In this document: positions 1-64,000 of the stretch, one piece after another
Numbering within the stretch: position 1 is the first letter of the stretch
Layout: the number at the start of each line of letters is the position of its first letter
Source: Isurus oxyrinchus
Taxonomy: Eukaryota
Direction of reading: 5' to 3'
DNA: 64,000 nucleotides
Assembly (NCBI GenBank): GCA_026770705.1
Contig: JANJGN010000034.1
Coordinates: 11,532,001 to 11,596,000 of the forward strand
Notes under the pieces: model-generated
What the model saw: the letters and a program-made list of their open reading frames with translations, nothing else
Database searches by the model: none
What the model was told of the DNA's origin: nothing
Translations under genes and position numbers: made by a program

Positions 1-2664
1 TGTCTTGGTCTCGAAACTCTTCCAGAAACTACAAAGGATTATAGTTAGCATATAAAACTGTTTCTGAAGTGTTGTTTGCACATACACATTGAAATGATAG
101 AAAGCTAAACCCAAACTTAAAGTCTCCTTTTCTAGAGCTGAGTGTTTCTTCTGATGCATATTCAAATGTGAGACATGTCCTGCTGGTTTCTCAAGTCCCA
201 GTTCACTTTCCTGTAACGACATAGTGCCAACATCTACATTTCTACATCGCACATTTACCTGGATGATACCATGGAATAAATGGTTGAATTATGGAGATAA
301 TGTGATCTTCCATTTCATGAGCTTTGGAAGCTGGTGGAAGATCTGAATGAGAAGTTTAATATTTTAAGCGGACCTAGTTGATAGATAGAGAAAAAAAATT
401 GCCTCTGCACGAAGAATCAAGGTTACCAAGACATAGTCTAAATTTCGAAGTTGCTTCGAGGGGAATGAGCGTTGTTCATATGTTGCTCATCGCTAGTGCA
501 CCAGAAGCTATTAACGGTCTTCTAATTAAAGCACTGAGTTGAACAACAGAGCAGAGGTGTGGCTGGAGGCCATAATGTTTCACCATCATAGGCTGCAGGA
601 GGCTTAGAGGAAAGGGCTCAGTGATCAAAGTAACAAAGTGTGACATCTGAAAATGATTACGGCATTGGTATTGCTCTGTCAGACAGGAAAACCGGCTTCC
701 AGAAAGAGAGACAGTGATGGATGATGCGAAAATGAATGGTGCTTATCATTACTTTCTAGACTGATCCGAGAGTAATTCGGCAGCTTCGGTGTGGGAATGT
801 GATGCTTGATGTATCCCACTGAGATTTGGTTAAGTATAGCTCAACCAGTTGTGTGCAGAAACAATAATGGCAATTCCCTGATGAAATAGAGACAGGTGTC
901 ATTGCAAGGGGGACAACCCGAATTGGAAACAGCAAAGTTATTCCTGGAAACAGTAGATTAAAGCTGTGGATAAGTTATTGGTTGAATACATTGCCAACTG
1001 CAGATGTTTCACGATGAATTGAAAGGAAGAGGTCAGCCAGCTGACACATTGAAAGCGGCTTCGTCAATGAAAAGCAGACAGATTTTTTTCTGTTTCCAGA
1101 GGAAATCAATAAGGGAAGTGGGGAGCAATTTGTAAGTGTGTGATGAAGACAATCGACGTCGGGAATCCAGTTCATAGGTGGCACTGTATATCAATAGCAG
1201 GAATTATGTGAAGGGAGTGGTTTACTGATCTCAGAATGGGACTGACTTCAGAGGAGGGAAGGCAAACTGAGCTTAGATGCAGACTCAAATCATAAACGCA
1301 AGCAATCGCTCATTAGAGATTGGGAAAGATATCTAGTGGTGCATTATGCTGGTGGCAGTTTAAAAATATATATAAAGGAGACGGAGCGAAATCTACTGTA
1401 ACAGCATCCTCATGGATTTGTTTCCTCCTGCTGTAGCGAATCGCGAGCCAACAATGCCCTGGAAGTCAGCAAGAAGGTTACCGTCTGTGGAAGCAAAATG
1501 GAAATAATTTTGATTCTAAGCATGTACAAACAATATTTGGTGAAATGCCTTACTTTCGGTAAATAGCATCACTTTATTACTTTTTCGTAGCAGCATTCTA
1601 AGCTGCTGCAAGGGTGAAGTGTATTAATGATGCGTAATATTATATAACCCACCAGAAACCACTGGTAAACAAGATATGATGTGTGCCCAGAAAATATAAT
1701 TACTTGAATGCTGGAAATTGGTAACAATTGGATTTGTTTCTTGAGCAATGCACATTTGGAGTTCATGCCTGATAGAGGATCATTCAATGTTATTTTAAAC
1801 CATGTGTATGAAAATTGTTCTCCAATGATGTTGCTCAGGTGCGGATTCGTTGGCATAGCAATAGATTCTAGGGACAGCGCATGACAGGAACTGGTTTGCA
1901 CAAACACAGGTACAGTTTACACCATGGGTTGCAGGTTAATCAGGAGCATAAACATTGAATTTCCTACTCTCCCCATCTTCAATGTCAGATACATGGTAGA
2001 GCTGCTGTCATGCCAGTAACAACGTGTCATATTTTCAAACTTCCGAATATGATATGTACTCAGTGTGGAATCGTTTGGAACTCCACTTTCTTTCCAAGAT
2101 GGTCAATATGTCCTGCAGAGGTTGGCCACCAAAGCTCAGCAGGCCTGATAAGTGGATTCAGAAACTGCCACGCTGTCTCGTGATGCCAAAACGATAAAGT
2201 CCAGACTAGGAGATTTCACCCACCTACACCCTAAGACTTATCGAAAGGACATTTTGAATTAAATTTGCCTTTATTAAATAAAGTCAACGATGGCATCAAC
2301 CCTTCTCATGATGAATGTCTTCCAACAAGAAACCAGGTTATGGATAATTAAACCAACACCATATTTGATAAGGGGAGCTGTGAGAAGTCAAATGTTGGGT
2401 AGACATGTCTGCTCTGGCTTCATCTTTAAGTATTGTGTGCTGAGCCACAGGATCAGCAGAAAGGGCAGGACGTTAATGTCTGCAGACTGTAAAACTATAA
2501 GGTCTTCAAGCCTGTTCCTGAAAACTGATGTTCTGGTAAAGAGACTAGAAGCAACTACCTTCCTGCCCTGAAAAAAGTCAATCTCTTCGATAGAATCCTG
2601 ATAACTACCTCAGCACGTGACTCCGGCTGTTGAACTTAGTTTCAGAGCCTGAGGAGAATATACT

Positions 2665-4055: not shown

Positions 4056-4099
4056 CTCATCAATTCACTGTAAACTGACCGATCGTGCACTTGTAATCC
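4056..4099 (-). CDS. Cytoplasmic exon 4, copy A (GLQVHDRSVYSELM-R), second half of ITAM
   Basis: Acceptor ttttaacag, donor AG|gtatgt; 44 nt, phase 0-2; completes YMGL-x7-YSEL. Confidence 0.82.
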
Positions 4100-4229
4100 C
4101 TGTTAAAATTAATAATATATTTGCTTTTTTAGTGAACAACAATAGAGTGCGTTAAAAGAGAACTGAGGTGAAATAAAGGATAAATAGTCAGTGAATGAGA
4201 TAAAAGAATGCACAAAATAATATCCTGAC

Positions 4230-4271
4230 CATATAAGTAGAGTCTTCCTCAAGTGGTTTTGTAGCTTGCTC
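4230..4271 (-). CDS. Cytoplasmic exon 3, copy A (EQATKPLEEDSTYM), first half of ITAM
   Basis: Acceptor catttttacag, donor gtcagg; 42 nt, phase 0-0. Confidence 0.8.
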
Positions 4272-4746
4272 CTGTAAAAATGCAATTTGAAAAACGAAAT
4301 ACAGGCAGGTACACAAGATTTCCATGTAATTACTTCATAATTTACAACGATTAGAATGTCATATATCCTACAATAAAAGTTATACCAATTTCCCTAAAAT
4401 AACTAGCCCCAAATTAAATTTCAAGGGTGAATGTTCATTACTAACACGTGGTGAAAGAGGAGCAACAGCGCACAGAATATTCATTTCACTCAGCACTCGG
4501 TTATCATGACTGTGGTAAAATTGAAAATTGACACCAATATCCCATGCTGCAACAGGAGCATTGTTTGATAATCTTATAAAAACAGGAACCAGTCCACTAA
4601 CCGAGTAAGGCAAAGAAACCGAAACCCCTACCCTAGTCTGACTTATTGCCGAATCGAGTTTACTCCGACTGCATGAACAATGACATTGTTATCCTCACTG
4701 GAATGAACTCGCCAATGTGACCATGTTTTAATACAATTATACCAAC

Positions 4747-4811
4747 CTTTTGCTTTCTTGGAATATTTTCGTAGGCCGATGCTGAATTCTCCCTTATTGC
4801 AGCAGGGCTGC
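4747..4811 (-). CDS. Cytoplasmic exon 2, copy A (GSPAAIRENSASAYENIPRKQK), tyrosine motif SAYENI
   Basis: Acceptor tttttcattctcacag, donor gttggt; 65 nt, phase 1-0; conserved in copy B. Confidence 0.75.
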
Positions 4812-5807: not shown

Positions 5808-6828
5808 CTCTAAAATGAAGCTTTCGTATGAAAATAGATACAGAAGCATATATTCGATGTTCTCAGTGTCAACGTATTTTCAGTCAGACATAATTTGCAC
5901 GAACGATTGCTTCTTTTCACCATTCACAAGTTAGGGAACCCTGTATTAAACAGTATATTGAGCGATATCCATGCTGATCCGAACATTTTTTTAAAATAGC
6001 GTTTAGCTGTTAGGCAATTGTGCGTAAAAGTGCTCAACAAGAACTAGTTTATCTACTTTGATGTGCAAACGTAAAGATTCATAAGTCTGCCCGATGTATG
6101 CTTGTTTGAATGAAGTTCAAGTCATAAAGCACTATTGACCCCTGCAACCATACATTCAACATGGAACTGCTAAAGTATTTCACTTACTATTTTCTGTTGG
6201 ACTAATGTTCGTAGCATTTTGCCCTTGCGTTGGTTCTTGCATCCTTAAGAAATGTAGTGCAACATAATAAAATAAACATTTTCAGGACGATATTATATTG
6301 CAATCATGATCTGCAACAGAAATCCTATTTCTTAATGTCTTATTATTAGTGGAAAATGTCTTCCTAACTGGAAGGAACAAATTTCATTCATGCTGGGCAA
6401 CATCGACATTATTTTATTCTTTTATGGGACCTGGGCGTCGCTAGCTGAGCCAGCATTTTTTATTGCCTATCCCTGATTGCCCTTGAGAAGACGGTGGTGA
6501 GCCGTCTTCCTGTGCCACTTCTGTCCATATGGCGTAGAAGCACCTAAAACAGTTTGATTAGTTGGAAGATGCAAAACTAAGTAACTGCATCAGCAACAGT
6601 AGTGGAGTGATATCATACCAAAGTGGGGAACTAACAGTAGGAAATTTTTGTCAATCAGAAAGAAAAACGATTATTATTGACTGTGTAAACATGCCTTATA
6701 AGTATATAGACTTGGATAGAGATATACACATATTTTGAAACAACCTTTCGCGCATCTACTTTGATTCAATTCATCAGGCTACAGACAAACTACTAAAGGT
6801 GCAGATAACATTTACATAGACTATTTAC

Positions 6829-6952
6829 CAGCATGCTTTCTTTTTGATCAGCCACGCGCTTATCCCGCCGATCATTCCCAGAATAAGTAGAACAGCAATC
6901 ACGATGCCTGCTTTGTGACCACTGCCTAATTCAGTGGTGGAGGAATGTTGTT
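6829..6952 (-). CDS. Stalk+transmembrane exon, copy A (EQHSSTTELGSGHKAGIVIAVLLILGMIGGISAWLIKKKAC)
   Basis: Acceptor attttcag, donor gtaaat; 124 nt, phase 1-2; hydrophobic stretch followed by KKK stop-transfer. Confidence 0.88.
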
Positions 6953-15626: not shown

Positions 15627-17820
15627 GTGAGATCCTGTGCCCTGTCATGACGCCCATGACACCTCCAGTGCCCATTCGTAACCCCATGACCCCTCATATC
15701 CACCAGGCTCCACATGCACTGTGCATAACCATTCATCCAGTATCCACTATGTGCAGAGCTCATGAGACACATGATGCCAAACGAAAGACTTTCAAATGCA
15801 CTCCAAAACATTGCATCTCTTACAAGAACAGAAAATATCAACCAAACGCGCATCCATTCATAATCCAGTGTTAAAACTCCAGTGTTAATGACGAAAAGAA
15901 ATCTCTTAAGTGGTCATTAAGTTGTGAAATTAAACAAACACCCATTAAAAAAAAACGCATTAAAGAAACTGAAACCAATGGCATGCACATAAAACCGTCA
16001 GTCCCCTTCACAGCTATGTCAACAGGTCCCTTGATGAGCTCAGTGGTTTCTGAAACTCAGCCAAGTATTCATAATGCAGTCAGCTGCAAAAACAGACTAT
16101 TACATCTGAAAACAATTTTCACTTTTGTTGTAAAAGGAACAGATGGAAAGGTTTTGTTTTCTCAAAATTTCAGTTTCGACCTGGAACAAATGGTCAGTTT
16201 TTTCCAATCTTCAGATCACTAACACCGGCTCCCTACTCACATTTTTACATGTTTTTGAACATATTCCGCCATGAAAATATACTCTAATGCATCTCAATAC
16301 GTAACTAGTTCTGGTCAATGTAATTGTCAAATTATCTTTTAACGTCAGATATTTCTGATCAATTCTTGTATTAAAATCATAATTAAAGCTATACAAAAGC
16401 CATGAACACACACCTACACGGGTACACTGTCTTTGAAAGCATATATTATCTTACACCATCTAAACATGGTTAAACCTATATGTCAAAACGCTCAGGGTTC
16501 CAGAGTAGTATTTACCCCATGATTGCCAAACGCTCTGCGGAGCCATGAATGGCATCTCATTGGAAAGGTTGGCCCAAATGCATCAACATTGTACCGGGCT
16601 TTCAAAAGTCCACCCCCCACAATGGAACTAGCATGGTTGCGAGTACAAGGTGCAGGGTCGCTATCCCACGACAAAGCTGCTGACAAAGGGAATGGGGGGG
16701 TATCTTAGAATCTGGCCCCACCCGCCATTTTTATAGACCTTCTGGCTCGGTACCACGGCACAAAAATCCAGCTCCATGAGTGTGAATCTGCGTTTAAAAC
16801 CTTGCGATAAGCCCTACTGGACAAAATAATCCGCGTTGTGAAATGTTGTTCAGGGAAGCCTCAAGTTACAAGATAAATTCAATAAACTGTACAAAAGGTT
16901 TGACAATTAATCATGGGGCCTGGTACACTATGTAACACCAGAATTGGTTGATGCTGTGTATGGATTTGGGTAATGTTGTTTGCAGCATTGAACCCAGCCT
17001 ATGTGAAACTACCACCCTACTGCGGTCTGACACTATTCTCCTGATTTACACAGTACTTTCCAAATATGGACCCACAACAAATTTGAGGTCTGTCACTCCA
17101 CTTCTACTGCAATTATAGTATTAGTCGTCCATTCAAATAAAAAACGTGCCTCCACTATTTACAGGAGACCACACTGTGAGCAACAAATGCAGTAGACTAA
17201 ATTTAAAGATGTGTAAGTGAATCGCTGTCTCCCCTGGAATTCATAATTGGGTCCTTGGAAGGTGAAGAGGGGGAGATAAAGAGGCAGGCGTTAGCCCTTC
17301 TCTAATTCCATGCAAAGGGGATGAGATGTTGGGCGCGTTGGAAGACTGGACCAGGACGTAAAGGAGGGAAATGTTCCTATGGAATGCTGACAGGGGAGGT
17401 GATGGATTATTAAAAAGAAGCTTGGGATTTGGGAATATAATTAGGATGAACGTTTTCTGCTAGTATGAAATGTTTTAAAATGCAACATGAAATAAAATGA
17501 CAAATAGATTTCACCATTAATGTGTCTCCCATTCACAGATATCAAAGTGGAAGTCTTCATTTGGAAATATACATGGAAGAAGGCCATGGAAAACAGTTCA
17601 AGGGTTAAAACAATTTAATAGTTTGATACTTCATAGCATAAAATTAAAGGTTATTTGTGAGCGCCACAAGTGCAATGTTACCCCCAATTATTTCAGCAAA
17701 ACTAACAGGACCAAAGAGCTGCACGTTCTTTCTATTCATACAATTAACTACTAAATAACTTGACCTTTGCATGGGTGGAATATAAGTTAAATAAATAAGA
17801 TTCAGAAATGTGTTACTTAC

Positions 17821-18083
17821 CTATTAGAACTTTATGTTTAGTGAGGTGCTGTAACTTTTTCTTAAACTGTTAAAGACCTGACAGGTATATGTTCCAGCAC
17901 CATTCAAAGTAATGCTAGAAATGATAAGTTTTTGCCCTTTTTGCTGCAGAGGGACATTGCTGATAAACTATTCCAATTCTGCAGGTGGGTTTGAGTCCAT
18001 AGAACATGAGAAATTAATGCTTTTTCCAACAAGGTAAGCAGACAAATCAAGGTCTATGGTTATGTTAGGAAGATCCGGTCCAT
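17821..18083 (-). pseudogene. Second IgC2 exon, disabled, copy A (YGPDLPNI...INFSCSMDSNPPAELE*F...GQKLIISSITLNGAGTYTCQVFN)
   Basis: Acceptor tttag, donor gtaagt; conserved Trp codon is TAG (17968-17970); 263 nt because of a 1-nt deletion near the 3' end relative to copy B. Confidence 0.9.
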
Positions 18084-18264: not shown

Positions 18265-20215
18265 TTTTTTTATTAATTCGTTCATGGGACGTTTCTGTCA
18301 CTGCTAGGCCAGCATTTATTGCCCATCCCTAATTGCTCTTGATAAGGTGTTAGTGAGCTGCCTTCTTCAGCTGCTGCAATCCACGTGGAGGAGGTGCACC
18401 CACACTGTAATTGAGAGGGTTGGGGAGGGGGTCGGAGGTTGGTGGGTTGAGGTTTTCAAGATTTTTTTCCCAGCAACAGTCGAATTTCCAAGTCAAGGTG
18501 GTGTGTGGCTTTAGGTTGGGGGATGGATGGGTGGTGGCGATGGAGGACGTCCTGGTGATTGTCTTTCTACTTGTCTGCTGCACTTCTACTCCAAGATAGT
18601 AGGGGTCCTGGGTTTGGGATGTGCTGTCTAAGAAGAATTGGTCAGCTCCTGCAGTGCATCTTGCAGATGGTACACACTGCTGCTACTGTGCGTCGGTGGT
18701 GGAGGGAGTAAATGTCTATGGATGGGGTGCCAATCAAGCTCGCTGCTTTTTCCTGGATGGTCTCACACTTCTTGAGTGTTGTGGCAGCTGCGCTCATCCA
18801 GGCAAGAGGGGAGTATTCCATTACACTCCTGACTTGTGCCTTGTAGATGGTGGACAGCCTTTGGGGAGTCAGCAGTTGAGTTACTTGTAACAGAATTCCC
18901 AGCCTCTGACCTGCTCTTGTCACCATAGTATTTATATGGCTAATCCAGTTCAGTTTATGGTCAATGCTAATCCCGAGGTTGTTGGCAGTGTGGCATTCAG
19001 CGATGGTAATGACATTCAATGTCATGAGGCAGTGACTAGATTTTCCCTTTTCGGAGAGGTTCCTGGCAATTCTGTGGCATGGATGATACTTACTACTTGC
19101 CAGCCCAAACCTGGATATTGTCATGGTCTTGCTGCTTTTAGACATGGACTGCTTCAGCGTTCGAGGGGTCATGAATGGTGCTGAATTTTGACAATCATCA
19201 GCGAACATCCTCCTTCTGACCTTATGATGGGACGATAGTCATTTATGAAGAAACTGATAATGGATTGGGGGAGGGCATTATCCCGAATAACCCATGCAGC
19301 GATGTACTGGAACTGATATGATTGACATCCAACAACCAGCGGCAACTTCCTTTGTGCTAGGTATGACCCCCACCAACCGAGAGCTATCCTCCTCTTTCCC
19401 ATTGATTTTAGTTTTGCAAAGGCTCCTTGAAGCCACATTCGGTCGAATACAGCCTTGATGGCAAGGGCAGTCACTCACACCTCCCCTCTGGAGTTCAGAT
19501 CTTCTGTTAATGTTTGAACCAAGGCTGTACTGGTTCAAACCATTACAGGAGCTGAGCGATTTTCGTGGAACCCAAACTTGGCATTAGTGAGCTGGTTATT
19601 TCGAAGCCAGTGTTGCTTAAGTGTTGCTTGATGGCACTGCTGGTGATCCCCTACATCACTTTTCTGATTATAGAGAGAAGACTGTTGGGGCAGTAATTGG
19701 CCGCATTGGATTTCTCCTGCTTTTTGTGCAGCAAACGTACCTGCGCAATTTTCCACAATGGTTTGTAATGCCAGTGCTGTAGATGCCAATGCTGCAGCTG
19801 TACTGAAACAGCATGGCTAAGGTCGCAGCAATTTGAGAAGCATAAGTCGTCAGTACTATTGCCGGAATATTGTCAGGGCCCAAAGCCTTTGCAGTAGCCA
19901 GTGCCTTGATCTGTTCGTTGATATCTCATGTAGTGAACCGAATTGTCTGAAGACTGGCATCTATAATGCTTTGGAACTCCAGGGGAGGCCGAGATAGATC
20001 ATCTTGTCCCTTCTGGCTGGAGATTGTTCCAAATGCTTCAGCTTTATATTTTGCACTCACGTGTTGGTCTTCCCCATCATTGCAGATGCGGAGTTTTGTG
20101 GAGCCTCCTCCTTCAATGAATAGTTTAGTTGTCCATCACCATTTAGAATTCGATGTGGCAGCACTGCAGAGCTTTGATCTGATCAGTTGGTTATAGAATT
20201 CTTTAGCTCTGCCAG
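18265..20215 (-). mobile_element. CR1/L2-group LINE, 5'-truncated, decayed RT
   Basis: ORF fragments GPDNIPAIVL.., ALAIKAVFDRMW.., MFADD.., IYKAQVRSVMEYSPLAWM; 3' UTR with A-rich tail. Confidence 0.92.
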
Positions 20216-20640: not shown

Positions 20641-21406
20641 AATGCCAAAGTCTCCTGCTTCTGATGATTTCTAATCACCTTTGTTGAGTACATATGTACA
20701 TTTCGAGTTCAGGAATGGTGAGGATATGATTCCTGCCATGAGCTGCAATTTTAAAATGTGAGATCTGTACAAACCTGCTGGGCACATACAGCAGTATGGT
20801 TGCATCAAAATGTATTGTTCTGAGAAAAAAATCTATTAAATTTTGATTTTGACAATTATTATTCTTTCCCTCAAACCAGTCTGAATTTCATCTTTTATCG
20901 GATTTAAAAATAAACTAATTAACTTCATTGAAAATATCCATAATGAAACCCGAATGTCCACTGAAGCAACACACAACTGTTCAAATACTTCGTCCATGAA
21001 ACTCGTATGTTTTATATCATCTGGTATTCCTGCTGTAGAATTAAGATTGAGCCGTTATGTCTAATGGCTTCTGGGATCATACCACAAAAGCTTCCTCACA
21101 TCCAAAAGTTAATTCGTTTAAGATTAGTCTGTAAACAAAGAAGTTCAATACTATCAATTATCAATGAACATATATTTTATTACGAGTTCTGTCTCAAAAA
21201 GCATCTAAGTATTCCGAGTATACTTACTTAAATAAATAATCTCTGAGGCAATTTTCCTTGGCAATGTAAAAGTGATGAGCTATTTGTTTACATGTTTCAA
21301 TAAATAATCATTATATGCAAACAATCATTTATTTCCCTTTTCCAAATCTGAAATGTAGCAGGTATGGTGATAAGTTACAAAACTAATGATCTGTTGGAGC
21401 ACCTGC

Positions 21407-21682
21407 AGCTAAAATTTGGGTTCTATAGGTCACTTGTCATTCTGCTAAAGGAGTTGAATGCGTAGCACTTGAATCGTCCATCAGAACTAAACACTGCAGA
21501 TATAGTGAGAGTTCCATTATCACCGCTTAGATCAAAGCTGCTGTCGGTAATAATATCAGGATTATCCTCAAGCCACTGATATGAAACTGCAGTGCCTGAT
21601 GCGATGCATGTCAGAGTCACGATCTCATTGTATTCAACTGAGTTGGTGACATTGTTGATTATATTAGGCTTTTAAATAGGTT
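21407..21682 (-). pseudogene. First IgC2 exon, disabled (EPI*KPNIINNVTNSVEYNEIVTLTC...YQW...NGTLTIS...FKCYAFN...SDL*NPNFS)
   Basis: Acceptor tttgacag; 276 nt, phase 1-1; C-W-C Ig pattern; in-frame TAA at 21672-21674 and TAG at 21423-21425; donor is gcaggt rather than gt. Confidence 0.88.
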
Positions 21683-27045: not shown

Positions 27046-27235
27046 TCCAAGCCCATGGTGGAAGTCTCCTTTATTGAATTCAAGAAGAGTTTGTCACCCT
27101 TCCATTCCCAAAATATCAGGATTTCTTGCAAATCGAGTCCAGGGCAGACAGAGAATGCGCATGTTGCTGCTAATTACGTCATCACGCTTTTTGGCGCCAT
27201 CGCGCGCGCGCTGTGAGACAAGACGGGCCACTTAC

Positions 27236-27553
27236 CAAGGACGTGCAGAGCGATGGTTGCTGTTGCTTCACTGCCATTAACTGGAGTCATGCTAACAATG
27301 TAATCTCCACTGTCCGAAGCTGTCACTGACTTCAGCAGCAATGATCCGTTAGCGAGGAAGATCTCAGCCCGTGTTGTGTACTCATTATGGAAATCAACAG
27401 CTGTCTTGATCCACCGACCTATAGTTTCCCTCTTGAACTCCCAGTTTCCAGACCTCACCGCGGCTGACGGCTTCACTGAAAATAATGCGTTTCCTCCGAC
27501 GGTCACATTAATCCGACTGTTTTCTGTCAGGATGGTGAAACCCTGGGGCTCAG
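27236..27553 (-). CDS. IgV (CEACAM N-type, cysteine-less) exon, intact: AEPQGFTILTENSRINVTVGGNALFSV...W...RAEIFLANGSLLLKSVTASDSGDYIVSM...ATIALHVL
   Basis: Acceptor tttctttctttag, donor G|gtaagt, 318 nt, phase 1-1, no stops; NGSLLL..DSGDY motif; no B/F-strand cysteines; lies within ORF 27174..27758. Confidence 0.92.
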
Positions 27554-27706
27554 CTAAAGAAAGAAAATCAGCATTAAGGACGAAGCAACCAGAAACTCGA
27601 CAAAACATCGACTTCTCGAACACCATACCCTGATTTTCTCTGACAATCTCTTGCTGTCTTGTTTCTTCAGTCACTAAAAGAACTGATATAAGAACGTGAT
27701 CCTCAC

Positions 27707-27758
27707 CCACAGATAGCAATAAGCAAACAGCGACCGCAGTAAGTGTCAGTCTCCTCAT
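27707..27758 (-). CDS. Leader/signal peptide exon, copy A (MRRLTLTAVAVCLLLSV-G)
   Basis: ATG at 27758; 52-nt exon; hydrophobic peptide; phase-1 donor G|gtgagg. Confidence 0.9.
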
Positions 27759-27781
27759 CCTGAGGGAACTGCGCCTGATAC

Positions 27782-27870
27782 ACTCGGCAACTGATCCGCT
27801 CTTCCTGGTGTACAGAGCAGATCAACTCAATCATTTAGCGAAACGGCAATGCTGATGGGCTCGAGCTTTG
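27782..27870 (-). promoter_or_regulatory. Conserved proximal promoter/5' UTR block of cassette 1 (ETS-type CAGGAAG at 27801-27807)
   Basis: An approximately 90-bp block conserved upstream of all three leader exons; CpG-rich neighbourhood. Confidence 0.55.
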
Positions 27871-29437: not shown

Positions 29438-29489
29438 CTTCATCCATTAATAAGCAAAGAGCGACCGCAGTCAACAGGGGTCTGATCAT
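29438..29489 (-). CDS. Second leader exon (MIRPLLTAVALCLLMDE-G), open
   Basis: 52 nt, ATG and G|gtgagt donor; paralogous to 27707-27758. Confidence 0.75.
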
Positions 29490-36964: not shown

Positions 36965-37720
36965 TTCAATTCATCCACGGGGTGTGAAGGTTGCTGACTG
37001 GGCTATCACTTTATGCCCATCCCTAATTGCCATTCAGATGGTGGTGGTGAGATGATATTTTGAACCGCTGCAGTCCCTGTGGTGTAGGTACAACCGCAGT
37101 GCTGTTAGGAAGGGAGTTCCAGGATATTGACTCAGCGACAGTGAAGAAACGGCCTATATATTTCCAAGTCAGGATGTTGAGTGGCTTGGAGGGGAACTTC
37201 CAGGTGGTGGTGCTCCCATGTGTCAGCTGCCCTTGTCCTTCTAGATGGTAGTGGTTGTGGGTTTGGAAGTTGATGTCCAAGGAGCTTTCTGAATTCTTAA
37301 TGTGCAACTTGTGCATGGCACACACTTCTGCCACTGTGCGTCGGTGGTGGAGGGAATGAATGTTTGTGGATGGGATGCCAATCAAGCTGGCTGCTTTTTC
37401 CTGGATGGTGTCAAGCTTCTTGAGTCTTGTGGGAACTGCACTCATCCAGGCAAGTGGGGAGTATTCAACCTGCAGGGCATTGATTTTGGGGGAATCAGTG
37501 ATGGTAATGCCATTGAACATCAAGGACGATGTTTCGATTCTCTATTTTTGGAAATGTCATTGGCTGGTGTTTGTGTGGTGTGAATGTTATCAGCTACTCG
37601 TCATCCCAAGCCAGGATATTGGCCAGGTCTGGCCGCATTTGGACATGGAGTCCTTCAGCTTCTGTAGAATCAATAATGGTGCTGGGCTTTGTGCAATCAT
37701 AATGAAATCATTCATATTTT
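36965..37720 (-). mobile_element. CR1/L2-group LINE 3' fragment with an internal deletion
   Basis: ORF 37023..37523, EYSPLAWMSAVPTRLKKLDTIQEKAA; same family as 18265-20215. Confidence 0.88.
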
Positions 37721-41002: not shown

Positions 41003-42135
41003 CGTCTAGATAACATGTAACCTTAGGGCACTAGAAGCTCCAGCACGAATGTTGGAAATGAAAGTCAAAAAAGAAATGAACTCTTCTGAAACCAAGTCCA
41101 CGAATACTGGCCAAGGAAATGAAAGGGGTTTCATTTGGAATGAAGAGCATATAAGGAGGGTGTATATTACACTTTCAGTTATGTGATGATTTCCTGCCTT
41201 TCCCCGTTTGTTCAAAGGCCCCCGCCCGTTTAGCTAGATATTCATGGTCCAGTCGCCTTTCCGATCACACACCCTAATCCCCACCGCTTTCCCTTGTTCT
41301 CTCCCACACAGCCTTAACCAAATTGAACGCTGTTCCCTCCCCCATTCCCATCACCAGTGGTCTCCCCAACTCCCATTATCAGTGCCTTCCCCTATTCCCA
41401 CTACCGGAGTCCTCCCCCACTCCCACCACCAGTCCCTCCCACAGTGAGCTCACCATTCCCTCCGACACTCATGTCACATAACCTGTACCGCACTTTAGCC
41501 TTAGATCCACTTCCCCACTCCTCCCAGAATTCCCCCCACAAAACTCGTCCTGCTTGACTACTTTGACCTGTCCTGTCACCAACTCTGGTCACTTTTTTTC
41601 CCATCCCCAGTCCAATTACCTTTCACCTCTCCCACTCTGATCCCTTTAGGATCTCACAAGCCAGAAGCTAATGGGCAATGGCTGCCAACAGGAAAGAAGC
41701 GTGAATTAGAGAGTGGACTGTTGTAGGCTTGCTTGGTGTTTCACCAAGAGGTATGGAGTCATGTGTGGTTGAGCATATACCATTTATTGTTATCACACAA
41801 CTGTATACATATCTGCAGGGTATAGCCCAAGGTATAGCTGTTTTCATGCTGACTACTCCCAGACTCTCTACACACTTTATACTATCATGTGACACTCTAC
41901 ATCACAATCTGGGCAGTATTGTTCTCCAGTCCCATATTAACTCCTGCATGCCCAACTACAGTTATACTAGATTCACTTCGTCAAGGTTCATGTGTGACAG
42001 CAACATTGAGTTCTGGATGGGCGACTATCAGACTCGACAGCCTCCGCGCACTCCACCCGCCTTCCCCATGCGTAAACCGCATTGCTGGTTGTGGCGTCTT
42101 CGCGCAAGCGCAGAGCGAAGGGCCGTTTCACTTGC

Positions 42136-42434
42136 CAGGGAAATGTTACCGCTAGTTTGCGTTCATTTGGGCGCAGTGTAATTTCCACCGTCCCACACTG
42201 TCAAGGGCTTCCATAGGAGTGATCCGTTAGGCAGGAATAACGCTGCATTCAATTGTATTTTTTTAAATTGTGTAGCTGGACGGACCGTTCCACACCAGGA
42301 TTTTTTCTTCCCGAAGTACCACGACCAATCCTTCACACCATCTGAGGGTTTAACTGGAAAAAAAATGCGTTTCCTCCGACAGTCCCATTAATCCGACTGT
42401 TTCCTGTCAGGGACAGTAAAACCCTGGGGCACAG
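42136..42434 (-). pseudogene. Second, adjacent degenerate IgV exon (VPQGFT..NSRINGTVGGNA..VKPSDGVKDWSWYF..LFLPNGSLLWKPLTVWDGGNY)
   Basis: Homologous to the intact V exon; acceptor mutated (cat), donor gcaagt, several frameshifts and stops. Confidence 0.8.
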
Positions 42435-42477
42435 ATGAGGAAAATAAACCCGTAATGAGAAAGGCGGTCACACTCAC

Positions 42478-42741
42478 CACATCGTCGGCTTTTCTGTAAC
42501 CGTCTTGATAGTATAATCTCCACTGTCCGAACCTGTCACTGAATTCAGCAGGAGGGACCCGTAAGGGAGGAATAACTCAGCAGGTTCATAGCGTTCAATA
42601 GTTCTACCAGAGCCTGCATGGAGCCACTTCGCGATGCTTTTGTCCCCGAATTGCCATCTCCCATTCCGCACCATAGCTGACGGCTCCAACCGAAAAAAAC
42701 AACAGCGTTTCCTCCCACGGTCGCATTAATCCAACTGTGTA
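42478..42741 (-). pseudogene. Frameshifted IgV exon (HSWINATVGGNA / EPSAMVRNGRWQFGDKSIAKW...AELFLPYGSLLLNSVTGSDSGDYTIK)
   Basis: V motifs split across ORFs 42545..42784 and 42474..42689; frameshift at the T-run near 42693-42700; acceptor ctcctcag, donor gtgagt. Confidence 0.85.
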
Positions 42742-42900
42742 CTGAGGAGAGAAATCCAAAGTAACAAAAGCGCTCAAACTCCACACAACATACACTTTTC
42801 TAAAGAGATAATAATAACATCCACTGATTTGCCCTGAGAATCTCGTGCTGTCATTCTTCTCCAAACCTTAGAAAGAGTGACATGAGAAAGTGATCCTCAC

Positions 42901-42952
42901 CCACAGGTATCAATAAACAAACAGCTCCCGCGTTAAGTGTCAGTCTCCACAT
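42901..42952 (-). CDS. Third leader exon (MWRLTLNAGAVCLLIPV-G), open
   Basis: 52 nt, ATG and G|gtgagg donor. Confidence 0.78.
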
Positions 42953-44829: not shown

Positions 44830-47800
44830 ACAGGATATCATCATATTCCCTAACAATTAAAAACAATCACGGTCATCAACCTACCTCCCTCAAGGTAAAA
44901 AACTGAAACGTTTATTTCAAAAAGACGTTTTCATTTGCTCAACTCACTTCGTATTACTTCCTATTCAAATCTACACAAAAAATACTGTTACACTAGGGTG
45001 CTCATGCATCAACCATGAATAAATAAACAATTGTTTTGTACGAATAAAGTTCATTCCAATCCATTGACAATTTACCAACATCCAAGCATTTTTCAATGTT
45101 AGCTCTTCGCAATGCATCTGCAATTAGATTCACTCGCCCAACCACATGCATCATTTTTAAATTGAACATTTCCAATAACAAATTCCACCAGAACAGTCTG
45201 GTGTCTTGGTCTCGAAACTCTTTCAGAAACTACAACGGATTATGGTTAGCATATAAAAATGTCTCTGAAGTATTGTTTGCACATACGCATTAAAATGTTA
45301 CAAAGCTAAAATCAAACTTAAAGTCTCCTTTTCTAGAGCTGAGTGTTTCTTCTGATGCATATTCAAATGTGAGACATGTCCTGCTGGTTTCCCAAGTCCC
45401 AGTTCATTTTCCTCTAATAACATAGCGCCAACATCCACATTTCTACACCGCACATTTACCAGGATGATACCATGGATTAAATGGTTGAGTTATGGAGATA
45501 ATGTGATCTTCTGTTTCATGAGTATTGGAAGCTGGTGGAAGATCTGAATGAGAAGTTTAATATGTTCAGCGGACCTGGTTGATAGATACTTACAAAAATT
45601 GCCTCTGCACGAAGAATCTAGGTTACCAAGACATAGTCTAAATTTTGAAGTTGCTTCGAGGGGAATGAGCTTTGTTCAGATGTTGCTCATCGCTAGTTCA
45701 CAGGAAGTTGTTAACGGTCTTCTAATTAAAGCACTGAGTTGAACAACAGAGCAGAGGTGTGGCTGGAGGCTATAGTGTTTCACCATCATAGGCTGCAGGA
45801 GGCTTAGAGGAAAAGGCTCAGTGATCAAAGTAACAAAGAGTGACGTCTGGGAATGATTACGACAATGGTATTGCTCTGTCAGATAGGAAAACTGGCTTCC
45901 AGAAAGAGAGACATGGATGGATGATGCGAAAATGAATGGTGCTTATCATTACTTTCCAGAGTGATCCGAGAGTAATTCGGCAGCTTGGGTGCGGAAATGT
46001 GATGCTTGATATATCCCACTGAGATTTGGTTAAGTATAGCTCAACCAGTTGTGTGCAGAAACAATAATGGCAATTCCCTGATGAAATAGAGATAGGTGTC
46101 ATTGCAAGGGGGACAACCCGAATGGGAAACAGCAAAGTTATTCTTGGGAACAGATTAAAGCTGGGGATAAGTTATTGGTTGAATATATTGCCAACTGCAG
46201 ATGTTTCACGATGAATTGAAAGGAAGAGATGAGCCAGCTGACACTTTGAAAGCGGCTTCGTCAATGAAAAGCAGACAGATTCATTTTTGCTTCCAGAGGA
46301 AATCAATAAGGGAAGTGGGAAGCAATTTGTAAGAGTGTGATGAAGACAATAGACGTCGGGAATCCAGTTCATAAGTGGCATTGTGTATCAGTAGCAGGCA
46401 TTATGTGAAGGGAGGGGTTTACTGATCTCAGAATGGGACTGACATCAGAGGAGGGAAGGCAAGCTGAGCTTAGATGCAGACTGACATCGCAAACGTAAGC
46501 AATCACTCAATAGAGATTGGGAAACAATATTTAATGGTACATCATGCTGCAGAAGTTTAAAAATATAAATAAAGGAGACTGAGAGATGTCTACTGTAACA
46601 GCACATTCATAAATTTGTTCTCCTCCTGCTGTAGCGAGTTGTGAGCCAACAATGACCTGGAAGTCAGCAAGAGGTTTACCGTCTGTGGAAGCAAAATGGA
46701 AATAATTTTGATTGTAAGCATGTATTAACAATATTTTGTGAAATGCCTTACTTTCGGGAAATAGCATCACTTCATTGCTTTTTTGTAGCAGCATTCTAAG
46801 CTGCTGCAAGGGTGAAGTGTATTGATGATGTAAAATATTATATAACCCACCAGTATCCAGTGGAACACAAGATATGATGTGTACGCATAAAATAAAATTT
46901 CTTGAATGCTGGAAACTGGAAACAATTGGATTTGTTTCTTGAGCAATGCACATTTGGAGTTCATACCTGATCGAGGATCATTCAATGTTATTTTAAACCA
47001 TGTGTATGAAAATTGTTCTCCAATGATGTTGCTCAGGTGCGGATTGGTTGGCATAGCAATAGAGTCTAGAGCAGCGCAAGACAGAAACTGGTTTGCACAA
47101 ACACAGGTACAGTTTACACCATGGGTTGTAGGTTGATCAGGAGAATAAAAACATTGAATTTCATACTCTCCCCATCCGCAATGTTAGATACATGGTAGAG
47201 CCTCTGTCATGCCAGTAACAACATGTCATATTTCCAAACTTCCGAATATGATATTTACTCAGTGTGGAATCGTTTGGAACTGCACTTTCTTTCCAAGATG
47301 GTCAATATGTGTTGCAAAAGTTGGCCACCAAAGCTCATCAGGCCTGATAAGTGGATTCAGAAACTGCCACATTATCTCGTGAGGACAAAACGATAAAGTC
47401 CAGACTAGAAGATTTCACCCACCTACACCCCAAGACCATCAAAAGGACATTTTGAATTAAATTTGCCATTCTGAAATAAAGTCAGCGATGGCCTCAACCC
47501 TTCTCATGATGAATGTCTTCCGACAAGAAACCAGGTTATGGGTAATTAAACCAACACCATATTTGGAAAGAGGAACTGAGAGAATCAAATGCTGGGTAGA
47601 CATGTCTACTCCGGCTTCATCTTTAAGTATTGTGTGCTGAGCCACAGGATCAGCAGAAAGGGCAGGGCGTTAAGAACTGGAGACTGTAAAACTATAAGGT
47701 CTTCAAGCCTGTTCCTTTTCAGGACCACCAACACTGAAAACTGATGTTCTGGTAAAGACACTAGAGACAACTACCTACGTGCCCTGAAAAAAGTCAATCT

Positions 47801-48083
47801 CTGCAATAGAATCCTGATAACCAAATCAGCACGTGACTCCGGCTGTTGAACTTAGTTTCAGAGCCTGAGGAGAACATACTTCATCTGATGTTTTAAAAAG
47901 TACATTGTTCATCGTCATGACCACGGATCATGGATCCGGATTACTTACGACACGTTGAACTTTTCAGTAAGACTTGAATTTCTTTAATGGGCGCACAAAC
48001 ATAAATTGGCTAGTACTGTAATGCCACCATTTGCCAGAAAATTACGATGTGGATTATAGTTGTCCGAATACGCAAGAGAGCAG

Positions 48084-48226
48084 GCTTGACCTAAATAGTT
48101 AAGTGGTTATGGTACTGGGTTTGTAACCCCAAGATCAAGAGTTCAAATCTCCCAATGGCAAACTGTGAAACAGTGTAACTTCATCTGAATAGGAACAGAT
48201 GGAAACGTGTTTGTACTCGAAAGAGT
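48084..48226 (+). mobile_element. tRNA-Thr(TGT)-derived SINE specific to unit B
   Basis: atagttaagtggttatggtactgggtttgtaaccccaagatcaagagttcaaatc resembles tRNA-Thr(TGT); degenerate 15-bp TSD (12/15) at 48069-48083 and 48227-48241; empty site near 2855 in unit A. Confidence 0.8.
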
Positions 48227-49421
48227 TACTCCAGAGAACAGAATATTGCACCTAATCAGGGTTTCCCACAATAGGGCAGTCATGTGAATCATGAATTAGT
48301 CATTTTCTTTATAACTTTTGGAAGCGCACTAGCCGCTTCAATTGCACATTCTTTGAGTGCATTTTTGTATGTAAATGTGTGAGTGAAGGCTGTAATGTTA
48401 GATTGAGCATGCAAATAAACAATTATCTTTATTTAAACGCACTATCAGGTGGCTGCCGGTTATTCAAATTGTCCACACTTTCAAGAGATAATAAGCACGT
48501 GTCTTTCCTTCAAAATTTTACTGATTACAGACAACTGGGAAGGGAACAGGAATTTCCCTGATTCTCTCCGTCACCCTGTCCGTAGCAGCCCCCGCCCATA
48601 TCCCAGCACCTCATGTGATACTTGCCAAGGCGTGGGACAAATTGAAGCTAACTTCACCCAGATCTTTGGTGTTCATTACGTGGCATTGGCTTATCATTGG
48701 AATCAAGAGTGAGCACGAATTCGGAGCATTACTACTGTTACCTTAAATCAGCTTTATCAGTTTGTGCTGTGTTTGCATTCTGCAGGAGACTCTTATGTTT
48801 TTGGCCCAAAACAACATCATTTTGCATAACGAGCCAAAGATGAAGACTCAGTTCACAATATAATCAAATTAAGGATGTCATTCTCAACCGCATACCCCAA
48901 GTTCAACATCCTCAGTGGCAAATGTTTAAACTGGACTCACGAGATAAGGTCATTTGTGAGCCAGCAGAGAAAACAATGCCTTAATATTATTTTTTTTGTT
49001 GTTGTAAAGCCTGACTAGTTCAGTAATGCCCTTTCTGGCAAATAGCATTTCATCCCAATCACTCTATATCAGCCTACAAGTTTTGGCTAACACTTAATAC
49101 TATGAGGAGATCACACTTGAACACTGCCTTGCCATGTGATAGCCCTGTCTTGTGAAGAAATGAGGAGACCTGACGCTGTGGATAGTGAAACGATGGCTCC
49201 TCCTTGTGGGAGAAAGTGGATCAATGGGACACAGTTTTAAAATAAGGGTCATAATCAGTGCAGCCACGATCTTATTAAATAGTGGAGGAGATTTGAAGGG
49301 GCCGAATTGCATACTCCTGCTCCTGATTCGTATAAATGTTTATTCTTAAATGGATAATTGTACACTCCATTTGCTTTTTTAAAAGATGGCAGATGACGTG
49401 TGAAATTTTCTTTCAACATAC

Positions 49422-49465
49422 CTCATCAATTCATTGTAAACTGACCGATCCTGCACTTGTAATCC
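49422..49465 (-). CDS. Cytoplasmic exon 4, copy B (GLQVQDRSVYNELM-R)
   Basis: 44 nt, splice sites intact; ITAM tyrosines and leucines kept. Confidence 0.82.
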
Positions 49466-49596
49466 CTGTTAAAATTAATAAGGTATTTGTTTTTTTAGTG
49501 AACAACAATAGAGTGTGTTAAAAAAACAAATGAGATGAAATATAGGATGAATAGTCAGTGAATGAGTTAAAAGAATGCACAGAATAATATCCTGAC

Positions 49597-49638
49597 CATA
49601 TAAGTAGATTCTTCCTCAAGTGGTTTTGTAGCTTGCTC
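49597..49638 (-). CDS. Cytoplasmic exon 3, copy B (EQATKPLEEESTYM)
   Basis: 42 nt, splice sites intact. Confidence 0.8.
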
Positions 49639-50104
49639 CTGTAAAAATGCAATTTGAAAAACAAAATATAAGCAGGTACACAAGAAATCCATGTAATTAC
49701 TTCATAATTTAGAACGATTAGAATGGCATATATCCCACAATAAAAGTTATACAAATTTACCTGAAATAACTAGCCTCAAATTAAATTTCAGGGGTGAATG
49801 TTCATTACTAACACGCAGTGAAAGAAGAGCAACCACGCACAGAATATTCATTTCACTCAGCACTCAGTTATCATTGTTGTGGTAAAATTGAAAATTGACG
49901 CCAATATTCCATGCTGCAACAGGAGCATTGCTTAGATAGAATTTTTTTTAAAAAGGAACCGGTCCACTAACAGAGTAAGGCAAAGAAGACCAAAACCCCT
50001 ACCCTAGTCTGACTTATTGCCGAATCCAGTTTACTCCGACTGCATGATTATCCTCACTGAAAGAATTCGCCAATGTGACCATGTGTTAATACAATTGTAC
50101 CAAC

Positions 50105-50169
50105 CTTTTGCTTTCTTGGAATATTTTCGTAGGCCGATGCTGAATTCTCCCCTCTTGCCGCGGGGCTGC
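50105..50169 (-). CDS. Cytoplasmic exon 2, copy B (GSPAARGENSASAYENIPRKQK)
   Basis: 65 nt, splice sites intact. Confidence 0.75.
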
Positions 50170-51138
50170 CTGTGAGAATGCAAAACAGTTAATCACATCT
50201 CCACATATAATCGCAGAATCATTCAATGACAGAGCACAATTGGAGGTCACTTAGCCCACCATGCCAGTATCAGCTCTTTGAAGGTGCAATACGATTAATC
50301 CCATTCCCCAGCCATTTTTGCACACCCTTGTAAGTAAATTTCCTTAAAGTACATATTCAATGTTCTTGTCAAACTGATATTCAACATGATTCCACCAGAT
50401 GTTCATGTTATGCATCCGATCATAGCTATTCGCTGCCTAAAAATAAATTTCCGCATCTCGCAATTGTCTTTTTTGGGAATTAGATTGCATTTTTACTAAC
50501 TATTTACTGATCCACCTATGGTTGGTTACAGTTTCTCATAATTTCCTCTATCACGATATTTCGCGATTTTGAACACCTCTGTAAAATCTCCCATTAGCCT
50601 CCCTGCTTTAACGAGAATAAGCCGAAATACTCCCGTTCCTCTACGGAACTAAAGTCCTACTTCTCTGGTGCTATTTCTGTAAATCTTCAGTACACACTCC
50701 TCAAAAGAGTAACATTAGTCCTGAATCATTGAACCATGTACATGCCAATACAGTGAGAACGGTTGCTTCATGTTCTGAGGCATTGCAGCTTTTGTTTCTT
50801 AGTTTTCTCTTTCTGGTTTCCGGTTCGACTCCCTTCGTGCTAATTTAATGATTACTTGAGTTGTTAGGTCAATTTTATGAACTAAGGGTACACTTGGAAC
50901 AGCCGTAATCAAGGAGTGAAAATTGGTGGGAATCTAGTTCTACATTTTTCAATATAACTCAGGGGAGATATAAAATCGGCCGCTGGTTCGCCATCATCTA
51001 TGCTACCTTCAGAAAGATAGGCGAAACTGTGCTTGGTATTTCATCATGTGGGTGTTCCCGAAGCTGACAGATTCACACTTTGAGTACCCAAGTAGCAGAA
51101 AACACAATAGTTAGTTCCAGGCAAAACCTTTGTCTCAA

Positions 51139-51203
51139 CATCAGCTCTGTATGTGTACACAAATCTATTCGGTTTTGAACTTTCACGAGGAATGTACAAG
51201 TCA
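51139..51203 (-). CDS. Cytoplasmic exon 1, copy B (DLYIPRESSKPNRFVYTYRAD); donor mutated
   Basis: Acceptor ttttgcag intact; donor is ttgaga instead of gtgaga. Confidence 0.55.
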
Positions 51204-52490
51204 CTGCAAAATGAGTCATTCGTATGAAAATAGATACAGAAGCATATATTGGATGTTATCAGTGTCAACGTACTTTCAGTCAGACATACTTCGCATGACC
51301 GAATGCTTCCTTTCACCATTCACAAGTTAGTGAAACCTGTATTAAACAGAATGTTGAGCGATATCTGTGGTGGGCCGAAATTTTTTTTTCAAATAGCATT
51401 TAGCATGTTGGGCACTTGTGCATGAAAGCACTCAAGCAGAATTAGTTTATCTACATTGATGTACAAACGTAAAGATTCATAAATCTGCCTGATGAATGCT
51501 TATTTGAATGAACTTCAAATCATGAAGCACTATTGACCCCTGCAACGATACAGTCAACATGGAAATGCTAAATTATTTCACTTACTATTTTCTCTTGGAC
51601 TAATGTTCGTAGCATTTTGCCCTTGCGTTGATTCTTGCATCCTAAAGAAATGTAGTGCAACATAATAAAATAAACCTTTTCAGGACAATATTGTATTGCA
51701 GTCATGATCTGAAACGGAAATCCCATTTGTTAATGTCTTATTATTAGTGAAAAATGTCTTCCTAACTGGAAGGAACAAATTTCATTCATGCTGGGCAACA
51801 TCGACAATTCTTTTATTCTTTTACGGGACGTGGGCGTCACTGGCTAAGCCAGTATTTTTATTGCCTATCCCTAATTGCCCTTGAGAAGACGGTGGTGAGC
51901 CGTCTTCCTGTGCTGCTGCTGTCCATTTGGCGGAGGAGCACCTAAAATGCTGTTTGGGAGGGAGCTCCAGGATATTGACCCAGTGACAATGAAGGAACAT
52001 CAGGAGGGAAGCACAAATCGATTCAGGAAAATTGGGGTAGATTAAGTAAATTGGCCAGAAGTAGGAGATATGAAATAGATCACCAGTATAAAGCCGTACA
52101 AACTTGTCCTTATTTTTGAACCAATCATTTACATTGCTACACATATTAAAGCATCGAAGTTCAGAGCTGATGGGACAGGAGAGCAAATTTGGTGGAAATT
52201 TAAATGATTTACAGTTTGAGTGTTTGGAAGATGCAAAACTAAGTCACTGCATCAGCAACAGTAAAGGTGTGTTATCATACCAGAGTGGGGAGCTAATAGA
52301 AGGAGATTTATGTCAATCAGAAATATAAACGATTATTATTGACTGTGTACACATGCCTTACAACTATATAGACTTGGACAGAGATATACACATATTTTGA
52401 AACAACATTTCACGCATTTACTTTGATTCAATTCATCAGGCTACAGACAAACTACTAAAGGGGCAGATAACATTTACATAGACTATTTAC

Positions 52491-52614
52491 CTGCATGCTT
52501 TCTTTTTGATCAGCCACGCGCTTATCCCGCTGATCATTCCCAGAATAAGTAGAACAGCAATCACGATGCCTGCTTTGTGACCACTGCCTAATTCATTGGT
52601 GGAGAAGTGTTGTT
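52491..52614 (-). CDS. TM exon, copy B (EQHFSTNELGSGHKAGIVIAVLLILGMISGISAWLIKKKAC)
   Basis: Acceptor tttgcag, donor AG|gtaaat; 124 nt, open. Confidence 0.88.
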
Positions 52615-63377: not shown

Positions 63378-64000
63378 CAGTTTTTTATTAATTCGTTCGT
63401 GGGAGGTTTCCATCACTGCTAGACCAGCATTTATTGCCCATCCCTAGTTGCCCTTGATAAGGTGTTGGTGAGTTGCCTTCCTGAGACACTGCAATCCACG
63501 TAGAGCAGGAGTACCCACAGTGTATTTGAAAGGGTTGGGTGTGGTGGTGGGCTGGTGTTTCCAAGATTTTGTCCCAGCAGCAGTTGAATTTCCAAGTTAC
63601 AGTGGTGTGTGGCGTTAGGTTGGGGGTTGGAGGGGTGGTGGTGATGGAGGACGTCCTGGTGGTTGTCTTCCCACTTGTCTGCTGCCCTTATCCTCCGAGA
63701 TAGTAGGGGTCCTGTGTTTGGGATGTGCTGTCTAAGAAGCCTTGGTCAGTTCCTGCAGTGCATCTTGTAGATGGGTACACACTGCTGCTACTGTGCATCG
63801 GTGGTGGAAGAAGTGAATGTTTGTGGATGAGGTGCCAATCAAGTAAGTTGCTTCGTCCTGGATGGTATTGAGTTTCATGAGTATTGTGGGAGCTGCATTC
63901 ATCCAGTCAAGTGCAGAGTATTCCATCACATTCCTGACTTGTGCCTTGTAGATGGTGTACAGCCTGTGGGGAGTCAGCAGCTGAGTTACTCGTCACAGAA
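63378..64000 (-). mobile_element. Same LINE, duplicate (runs off the window)
   Basis: MMEYSALDWMNAAPT.. Confidence 0.9.

Follow-up and report, generated by a model that had tools for sequence, protein, structure and literature searches.

The window, by which we mean the whole 64,000-nucleotide stretch of Isurus oxyrinchus DNA analyzed here, carries on its reverse strand the exons of one receptor gene, copy A, and, 45 kb from it, part of a second gene, copy B, whose four N exons are located beyond the window (Table 1). In copy A the leader, the N exon, the transmembrane (TM) exon and the five tail exons are open and their splice sites intact. The predicted product is leader-N-TM-tail, with one IgV domain, in a layout like that of CEACAM3/4. 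Two white-shark RefSeq models can be set beside these genes: XP_041032829.1 (P0013) has the same layout as copy A, to which it is identical at 39 of 40 residues of the stalk/TM exon and at all 14 of Cyt3, and XP_041032827.1 (P0002) has the tail of copy B, with 100% identity in Cyt1, Cyt2 and Cyt4. Copy B shares the dead IgC exons of copy A and is matched both by transcripts and by P0002.

An open stretch of 215 codons (27174-27821, reverse strand) runs through the leader, intron 1 and the N exon without a stop, and similar long frames lie at other N exons. The window also holds reverse-transcriptase-like open stretches, at 18270-19900, 37010-37540, 51810-52000 and 63390-64000, which are repeated within it and which we take to be retroelement fragments.

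Table 1. Features of copy A, of copy B and of the facing gene (window positions, unless preceded by the contig label C34)
Feature	Position	Strand	Remarks
Cyt5 terminal exon, copy A	355..1484	-	7 coding bases (MRR-stop) and 3' UTR
Cyt4 exon, copy A	4056..4099	-	44 nt, phase 0-2; GL completes first YxxL; second is YSEL
Cyt3 exon, copy A	4230..4271	-	42 nt, phase 0-0; ends with YM, first half of first YxxL
Cyt2 exon, copy A	4747..4811	-	65 nt, phase 1-0; holds YEN(I) motif
Cyt1 exon, copy A	6188..6243	-	56 nt, phase 2-1; upstream of the three core exons
Stalk and transmembrane exon, copy A	6829..6952	-	124 nt, phase 1-2; helix without charged residue
Dead IgC (B-type) exon	17820..18083	-	in-frame stops; limits approximate
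Dead IgC (A-type) exon	21405..21682	-	two in-frame stops; limits approximate
N (IgV-like) exon	27236..27553	-	318 nt, phase 1-1, open, no cysteine
Leader exon candidate adjoining N	27707..27758	-	52 nt, ATG intact
Second leader exon candidate	29438..29489	-	52 nt, ATG intact; type used by RefSeq models P0002, P0013
Third leader-like exon, then two broken N-like exons	42130..42952	-	
Copy B	46676..52614	-	TM 52491-52614, Cyt1 51586-51641, Cyt2 50105-50169, Cyt3 49597-49638, Cyt4 49422-49465, Cyt5 start 46682
Inverted CEACAM1-like gene	C34:11875710-11967667 (~11.876-11.968 Mb)	+	L018-L027; head to head with rest of cluster

A five-exon tail with a split ITAM

Cyt2, Cyt3 and Cyt4 of copy A are the middle of a five-exon cytoplasmic tail. 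All three have polypyrimidine-AG acceptors and GT donors, and when joined they read SAYENI, DSTYM/GL (the slash marks an intron) and YSEL. The pattern D/ExxYxxL/I-x6-8-YxxL/I is thus present, its first YxxL split by a phase-0 intron, and the canonical ITAM claimed in the earlier note holds on splice sites, phases, a spacer of 7 residues between the two YxxL and an aspartate at -3. ITAMs of CD3, CD79, FcR-gamma and DAP12 share the phase-0 split. The YEN motif lies 21 residues upstream of the first ITAM tyrosine. The end of the tail needs correction: it had been read as MR-stop, but the 44-nt exon has a donor at its end and is joined to the fifth exon at 1484, giving MRR-stop. We infer the lower limit of this last exon from the sole AATAAA/ATTAAA signal, at about 360. 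We considered read-through of the Cyt4 donor, with an end 13 residues longer, as the main form, and rejected it: all listed contig ends at 4056 in runs X8 and X11 continue into Cyt5, and the RefSeq models end in MRR. Five cytoplasmic exons are found here rather than the mammalian four; since a distal gene of the same shark cluster has four and reptile genes have three, the number is not fixed for the activating CEACAM family. The translated TM exon confirms that the helix bears no charged residue, which argues against the use of an adaptor and supports, as a prediction, the proposal that signaling would come from the tail itself.

Evidence of splicing comes from transcript contigs of a related shark (organism A), pooled over runs of three studies. 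Of 11 runs listed for this stretch we examined six; none is recorded as RNA, and the runs are guessed to be RNA. X8 and X9, which are from one sample, have contigs that join 4270 to 4746 with CT..AC ends (Cyt2-Cyt3), and an X9 contig joins 4810 to 6187 with the same ends (Cyt1-Cyt2). The TM-Cyt1 joint is seen in contigs of X8, X9 and X10, at an approximate position. For Cyt3-Cyt4, contigs of X8, X9 and X11 have loose ends at 4100 and 4229 whose letters are those of the two exons, and for Cyt4-Cyt5 contigs of X8 and X11 have a loose end at 4056 whose letters belong to the exon starting at 1484, with 0 mismatches of 22 to copy B and two to copy A. In a narrow comparison, contigs of X8, X9 and X11 cover exon bins only; run X2 covers all 30 bins with none of the tail joints, X1 gave no joint and X10 the TM-Cyt1 joint only. 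The contigs match copy B and the type of three other genes of the cluster (L011-L013), not copy A specifically. The five tail exons are therefore spliced together in sister paralogs of the related shark. The earlier note would have given up its reading had the micro-exons never been spliced together in any paralog; junctions were among the checks it proposed, and all five occur in these sister-paralog contigs. Its description of the exons as hidden fares less well: the tail is not hidden from annotators, as both P0013 and P0002 contain it.

The ITAM pattern occurs twice in the 1,635,996 six-frame residues of the surrounding 818-kb region, a crude null that ignores the freedom to pick exons. 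The RNA joints and the conservation of the tail in seven shark and ray genera make the stronger argument for its reality. A search with the tail alone, too narrow to gauge its spread among species, gave two matches among three candidate proteins of 129-412 residues. Among 24 homologues, 12 have a YEN motif near their end, and in ten of these a YxxL-x7-YxxL follows 20-23 residues downstream; of the other two, one has histidine for the first tyrosine and one model stops early. All ten homologous tails that have the tyrosine pair also have YEN and the spacing of 7, and five of them keep an acidic residue at -3. By contrast, the residue at -2 required by an ITIM (S/I/V/L) is kept in only two of the 12 YEN motifs. 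The earlier note had given SAYENI two readings, a loose ITIM and a YxN site of the Grb2 type. All three tyrosines of copy A fit the loose pattern (S/I/V/L)xYxx(I/V/L), including both tyrosines of the ITAM, so that this fit does not discriminate, and the ITIM reading is not supported. The Grb2-type reading is: to judge by these counts, YxN is the conserved feature of the tail and the ITIM fit is incidental. YxN motifs bind Grb2-like SH2 domains (PMC2832619, PMC5112662).

Copy B keeps every tyrosine and leucine of the tail (49422-50169), as the earlier note had stated. Between the two copies, 7 of 151 bases differ in the Cyt2-Cyt4 exons; over the wider comparison, 14 of 331 exon bases differ versus 285 of 2984 intron bases (p 0.0004). 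Codon changes in TM and tail comprise 11 nonsynonymous and three synonymous ones.

The CEACAM cluster near LIPE

All 23 homologues found with the N exon are shark or ray proteins. The top three of four PDB sequence matches are mouse CEACAM1, at a weak E of 5.5e-5, and the V-set match (E 1.6e-4) is below the Pfam cut-off. The exon encodes no cysteine. An N-terminal IgV-like domain devoid of the Ig disulfide is a trait of the CEA family. Another cluster member, represented by the white-shark protein P0014, gives a CEA match at E 8e-115, with the next family at 2e-30. The exon order leader-N-(A-B)n-TM-Cyt, with conserved phases, is found in the cluster. Folding of the N domain from its single sequence reached a pLDDT of 37; with a 14-sequence alignment, two of five models rose above 80, and the N-domain model has an IgV fold at pLDDT 92. 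A fold search with this model returned TIGIT at Z 15.7 (rmsd 1.8, 99 aligned) and the CEACAM7 N domain at Z 13.9 (rmsd 2.3, 100 aligned, rank 46). Foldseek gave no CEACAM among the matches listed, and fold searches do not separate CEACAM from other IgV families.

On the LIPE side, genomic position agrees with the family assignment: an HSL_N match at C34:12.44 Mb puts LIPE some 0.47 Mb beyond the end of the cluster. CLPTM1 belongs to the BCL3/TOMM40/APOE block, and was taken as a proxy for that side; in a strict first look its seven matches all lay on contigs C31 or C3 and none on C34. In catshark, a CEACAM5-like gene is described as adjoining lipeb (bioRxiv 10.64898/2026.03.04.709523). Judged on sequence, copy A belongs to the CEACAMs with a single IgV domain, and its cluster lies close to LIPE.

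Cyt3-Cyt4 DNA has 15 matches, all within C34:11.245-11.804 Mb, 12 of which keep both ITAM tyrosines; exons were checked in 13 of these copies on a cluster map of 818 kb, the two most decayed being left out. The apparently intact activating genes are copy A with one N exon, copy B with four, three N-A-B-A-B genes (L011-L013) and a distal gene with two N exons and a four-exon tail, which is not among the 15 matches. In this distal gene (C34:11210167-11224167, reverse strand, L086-L088), YENV and a split tyrosine pair come after a Cyt1 nearly the same as that of the inverted gene described below, and the same mosaic tail is found in the basking-shark protein P0003. In L011-L013, a 16-base insertion after the second YxxL of Cyt4 shifts the frame of the end; proteins P0016 and P0025 have the same longer end. 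L009 and L010 have each lost one ITAM tyrosine (to Cys in L009, Asp in L010) and have a broken donor site.

Six tandem units of about 41 kb (C34:11285000-11531500; L002-L007, L056-L081) are 91-93% like the unit of the window. Neither the N exon nor the leader next to it is present in them, and in a second leader the ATG has become TTG; the TM and the ITAM tail are open, and a third leader retains its ATG and its donor. The units are probably pseudogenes, although they may encode a leader-TM-ITAM product without ectodomain. We found nothing to support their maintenance as ITAM adaptors without an ectodomain: in none of six unit pairs did exons and introns diverge to a different degree (p 0.19-0.77; low power), so that the exons are not more conserved than the introns. 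Five further cysteine-free N-like exons at C34:10843916-10984596 (L094-L097; 38-42% identity) possibly form a second CEACAM subgroup; one of them matches human CEACAM1 weakly (E 1.7e-4) and another has no PDB match. Two broken N-like exons lie far from the cluster, at C1:148361730-148363618.

The facing gene and its N domain

The gene that faces the rest of the cluster resembles CEACAM1 in having a 53-nt Cyt1 and both its tyrosines in the last exon; a 53-nt Cyt1 has been published for CEACAM1 (PMC13278318, PMC2110893). Its two motifs, VVYAQP and TDYAEL, each miss the strict ITIM (I/L/V/SxYxxL/V) or ITSM (TxYxxV/I) by one position. From its position, its exon layout and its conservation in four shark genera, we infer that it would work like CEACAM1, as an inhibitory receptor. 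Skipping of its 53-nt Cyt1 would give a short tail that matches the RefSeq short isoforms P0015 and P0018, in the manner of CEACAM1-L/S splicing.

Over a tract of 679 bp, which begins upstream of the leader and ends at the N donor, the inverted gene is 95.6-96.8% identical to three activating genes and 88.6% identical to copy A. With the three activating genes, identity is 95-100% over leader, intron 1 and N exon and falls to about 50% in the next 300 intron bases; with copy A, it is 94% in N, 85% in leader and intron 1, and 51% in intron 2. The tract is conversion-like, with signs of gene conversion that are clear for L011-L013 and older or partial for copy A. At the protein level, identity to the inhibitory N is 83-91% for eight of ten activating N exons, and 50% and 67% for the two of the distal gene. 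In three lamniforms (this genome, white shark and basking shark), the inhibitory N is closer to an activating N of the same species (96-98 of 105 residues; 91-93%) than to its orthologues (84-88 of 105; 80-84%), and monophyly of the three inhibitory N domains is rejected with p-AU 0.0006, in a test run after seeing a 52-row tree. Of 105 residues, 17 differ between the inhibitory N and its white-shark orthologue P0014, versus 6 of 437 in six other exons (p 9e-9; the leader, Cyt1, Cyt2 and the IgC exons absent from that isoform were left out). The inhibitory N thus changes between species about twelve times faster than the other exons of its gene. Among paralogous N exons, pN is 0.066 and pS 0.041, in pairs that are not independent.

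Four criteria for pathogen-driven pairing are listed in a preprint (PMC13278318). Three of the features it names are found in the shark cluster: ITAM genes with an N domain like that of the inhibitory receptor, opposite orientation and signs of gene conversion. For the remaining one, dN/dS above 1 in the inhibitory N, the 17/105 versus 6/437 given above serves as a protein proxy. No paper on paired CEACAMs in sharks was found in our searches of the openly accessible literature.

Comparison with known systems and interpretation

The earlier note implied that the tail layout is surprising, which overstates the case. The phase-0 split is called characteristic of ITAM CEACAMs and YxN is reported in marsupials and frogs (PMC2832619, PMC2110893, PMC5112662), and PMC13278318 likewise describes such a layout as characteristic of activating CEACAMs. 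Marsupial ITAM-type genes related to CEACAM1 share the canonical ITAM, the first YxxL split in phase 0 and a Grb2-type YxN in Cyt2 (PMC2832619); they have four cytoplasmic exons as described there, whereas the terminal exon of the shark gene adds 7 coding bases, and we liken the two by layout and motifs rather than by tail alignment. The paired ceacam genes of Xenopus (PMC5112662) share the split YxxL, YxN in most activating members, the opposite orientation, conversion of the N region and a locus beside lipe. Conversion is there reported as restricted to the N exon, while the best shark tract also takes in the leader, intron 1 and about 140 bases upstream; in dog CEACAM1/CEACAM28, the tract extends beyond the N exon as in the shark (PMC2110893). 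Reptile ITAM CEACAMs have three cytoplasmic exons and an additional tyrosine motif, located 17-21 residues upstream of the first tyrosine of the ITAM (21 in the shark), which the authors read as endocytic or ITIM-like (PMC13278318). Human CEACAM3 and CEACAM4 share with copy A the single IgV domain, the uncharged TM and a tail with a tyrosine pair (PMC7026191). However, CEACAM3 has a non-canonical ITAM-like motif, in contrast with the canonical shark ITAM, and as a gene described for primates it is not the orthologue of the shark gene. The one-domain form of the shark goes with dead IgC exons, and phagocytic function, shown for CEACAM3, is one that we infer for the shark (PMC7026191). Closest to hand are the white-shark RefSeq models P0013, P0002, XP_041032670.1 and XP_041032668.1, with near-identical TM and tails and the same activating and inhibitory types; they bear automatic names only, and their N domains are 16-20% different from their mako counterparts.

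The structure of the exons and their open frame, the splicing of sister paralogs, the family assignment, the arrangement of the cluster and the conversion-like tract are observed; on this basis we read the copy A exons as the ITAM tail of a single-IgV shark CEACAM, predicted to be activating and likely a decoy partner of the facing CEACAM1-like inhibitory gene, with a probability of about three in four. If the receptor works as human CEACAM3 does (PMC7026191), a multivalent ligand, most likely a microbial adhesin, would cluster its N domains, and Src-family kinases would in turn phosphorylate the tail. The paired YxxL would then bind the tandem SH2 domains of Syk/ZAP-70, as predicted from their canonical spacing, the YEN site would bind adaptors with Grb2-type SH2 domains, and signaling would drive uptake and killing in phagocytes. 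From the pairing pattern we predict that the activating receptors serve as decoys for microbes that exploit the inhibitory receptor: gene conversion would keep the activating N domains like the inhibitory one, and such microbes would also trigger the activating receptors.

Several other readings have to be weighed. That these exons are intronic pieces stitched together by chance has a negligible probability: they are short, and two of their donors (GTTGGT, GTCAGG) are not of the strongest type, but the RNA joints, the RefSeq proteins and the conservation in seven genera oppose this view and refute it for the sister paralogs. The tail may instead be inhibitory or dual, either through an ITIM-like SAYENI or through inhibitory ITAM signaling via SHP-1. 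Such a tail could account for the loose ITIM fit of all three copy A tyrosines, and a subset of the reptile upstream motifs does fit the ITIM (PMC13278318); we nevertheless hold it to be highly unlikely, against a -2 residue kept in two of 12 tails, YEN and the spacing of 7 in ten of ten, and a cluster that already has a CEACAM1-like gene. A different doubt concerns copy A alone, which could be a recently dead or silent duplicate with a real tail, only copy B and the N-A-B-A-B genes being used. The stops in both IgC exons, the adjacent six units devoid of an N exon and with one leader changed from ATG to TTG, the RNA contigs that match other paralogs, and the 11 nonsynonymous versus three synonymous changes against copy B all lean in this direction. 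Yet copy A keeps an open frame and intact splice sites in its leader, N, TM and five tail exons, the same IgC exons are dead in copy B, which transcripts and P0002 nonetheless match, and white-shark P0013 is the same one-domain model; we find a silent copy A improbable.

We may also hypothesize an activating or endocytic receptor for self adhesion or lymphocyte tuning, in which the likeness of N domains results from turnover of the tandem array and which has no pathogen-decoy role. Tandem arrays homogenize by unequal crossing-over, and in the dog T cells express CEACAM28 together with CEACAM1 (PMC2110893). Array turnover, however, does not readily fit a tract that ends at the N donor and is shared between genes on opposite strands, and the roughly twelvefold faster change of the inhibitory N resembles that of published pathogen receptors, which makes a role other than that of decoy doubtful.

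The motif itself is ordinary for an activating CEACAM: the design has been published and the tail already stands in automatic annotation. What changes is the reading of the extra tyrosine, from an ITIM to a conserved Grb2-type site, and the reach of the paired-CEACAM pattern of mammals, frogs and reptiles, which is extended to cartilaginous fish; in the literature consulted on paired CEACAMs, only skate ESTs were reported for these. What merits following is the pairing of these genes in sharks, together with their conversion and the rapid change of the N domain. A broader claim, on which we are evenly divided, is that sharks have a complete receptor-decoy system in the style of CEACAM1/CEACAM3, directed at microbes and in an ongoing arms race: one inhibitory gene versus at least six activating ones, with conversion within each species resetting the N domain, and with the one-domain design of copy A reached independently by killing its IgC exons. 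We predict that shark microbes that bind the inhibitory N domain also bind activating ones. If the complete system is real, CEACAM pairing and the tail that combines YxN with a split ITAM would date to the ancestor of jawed vertebrates.
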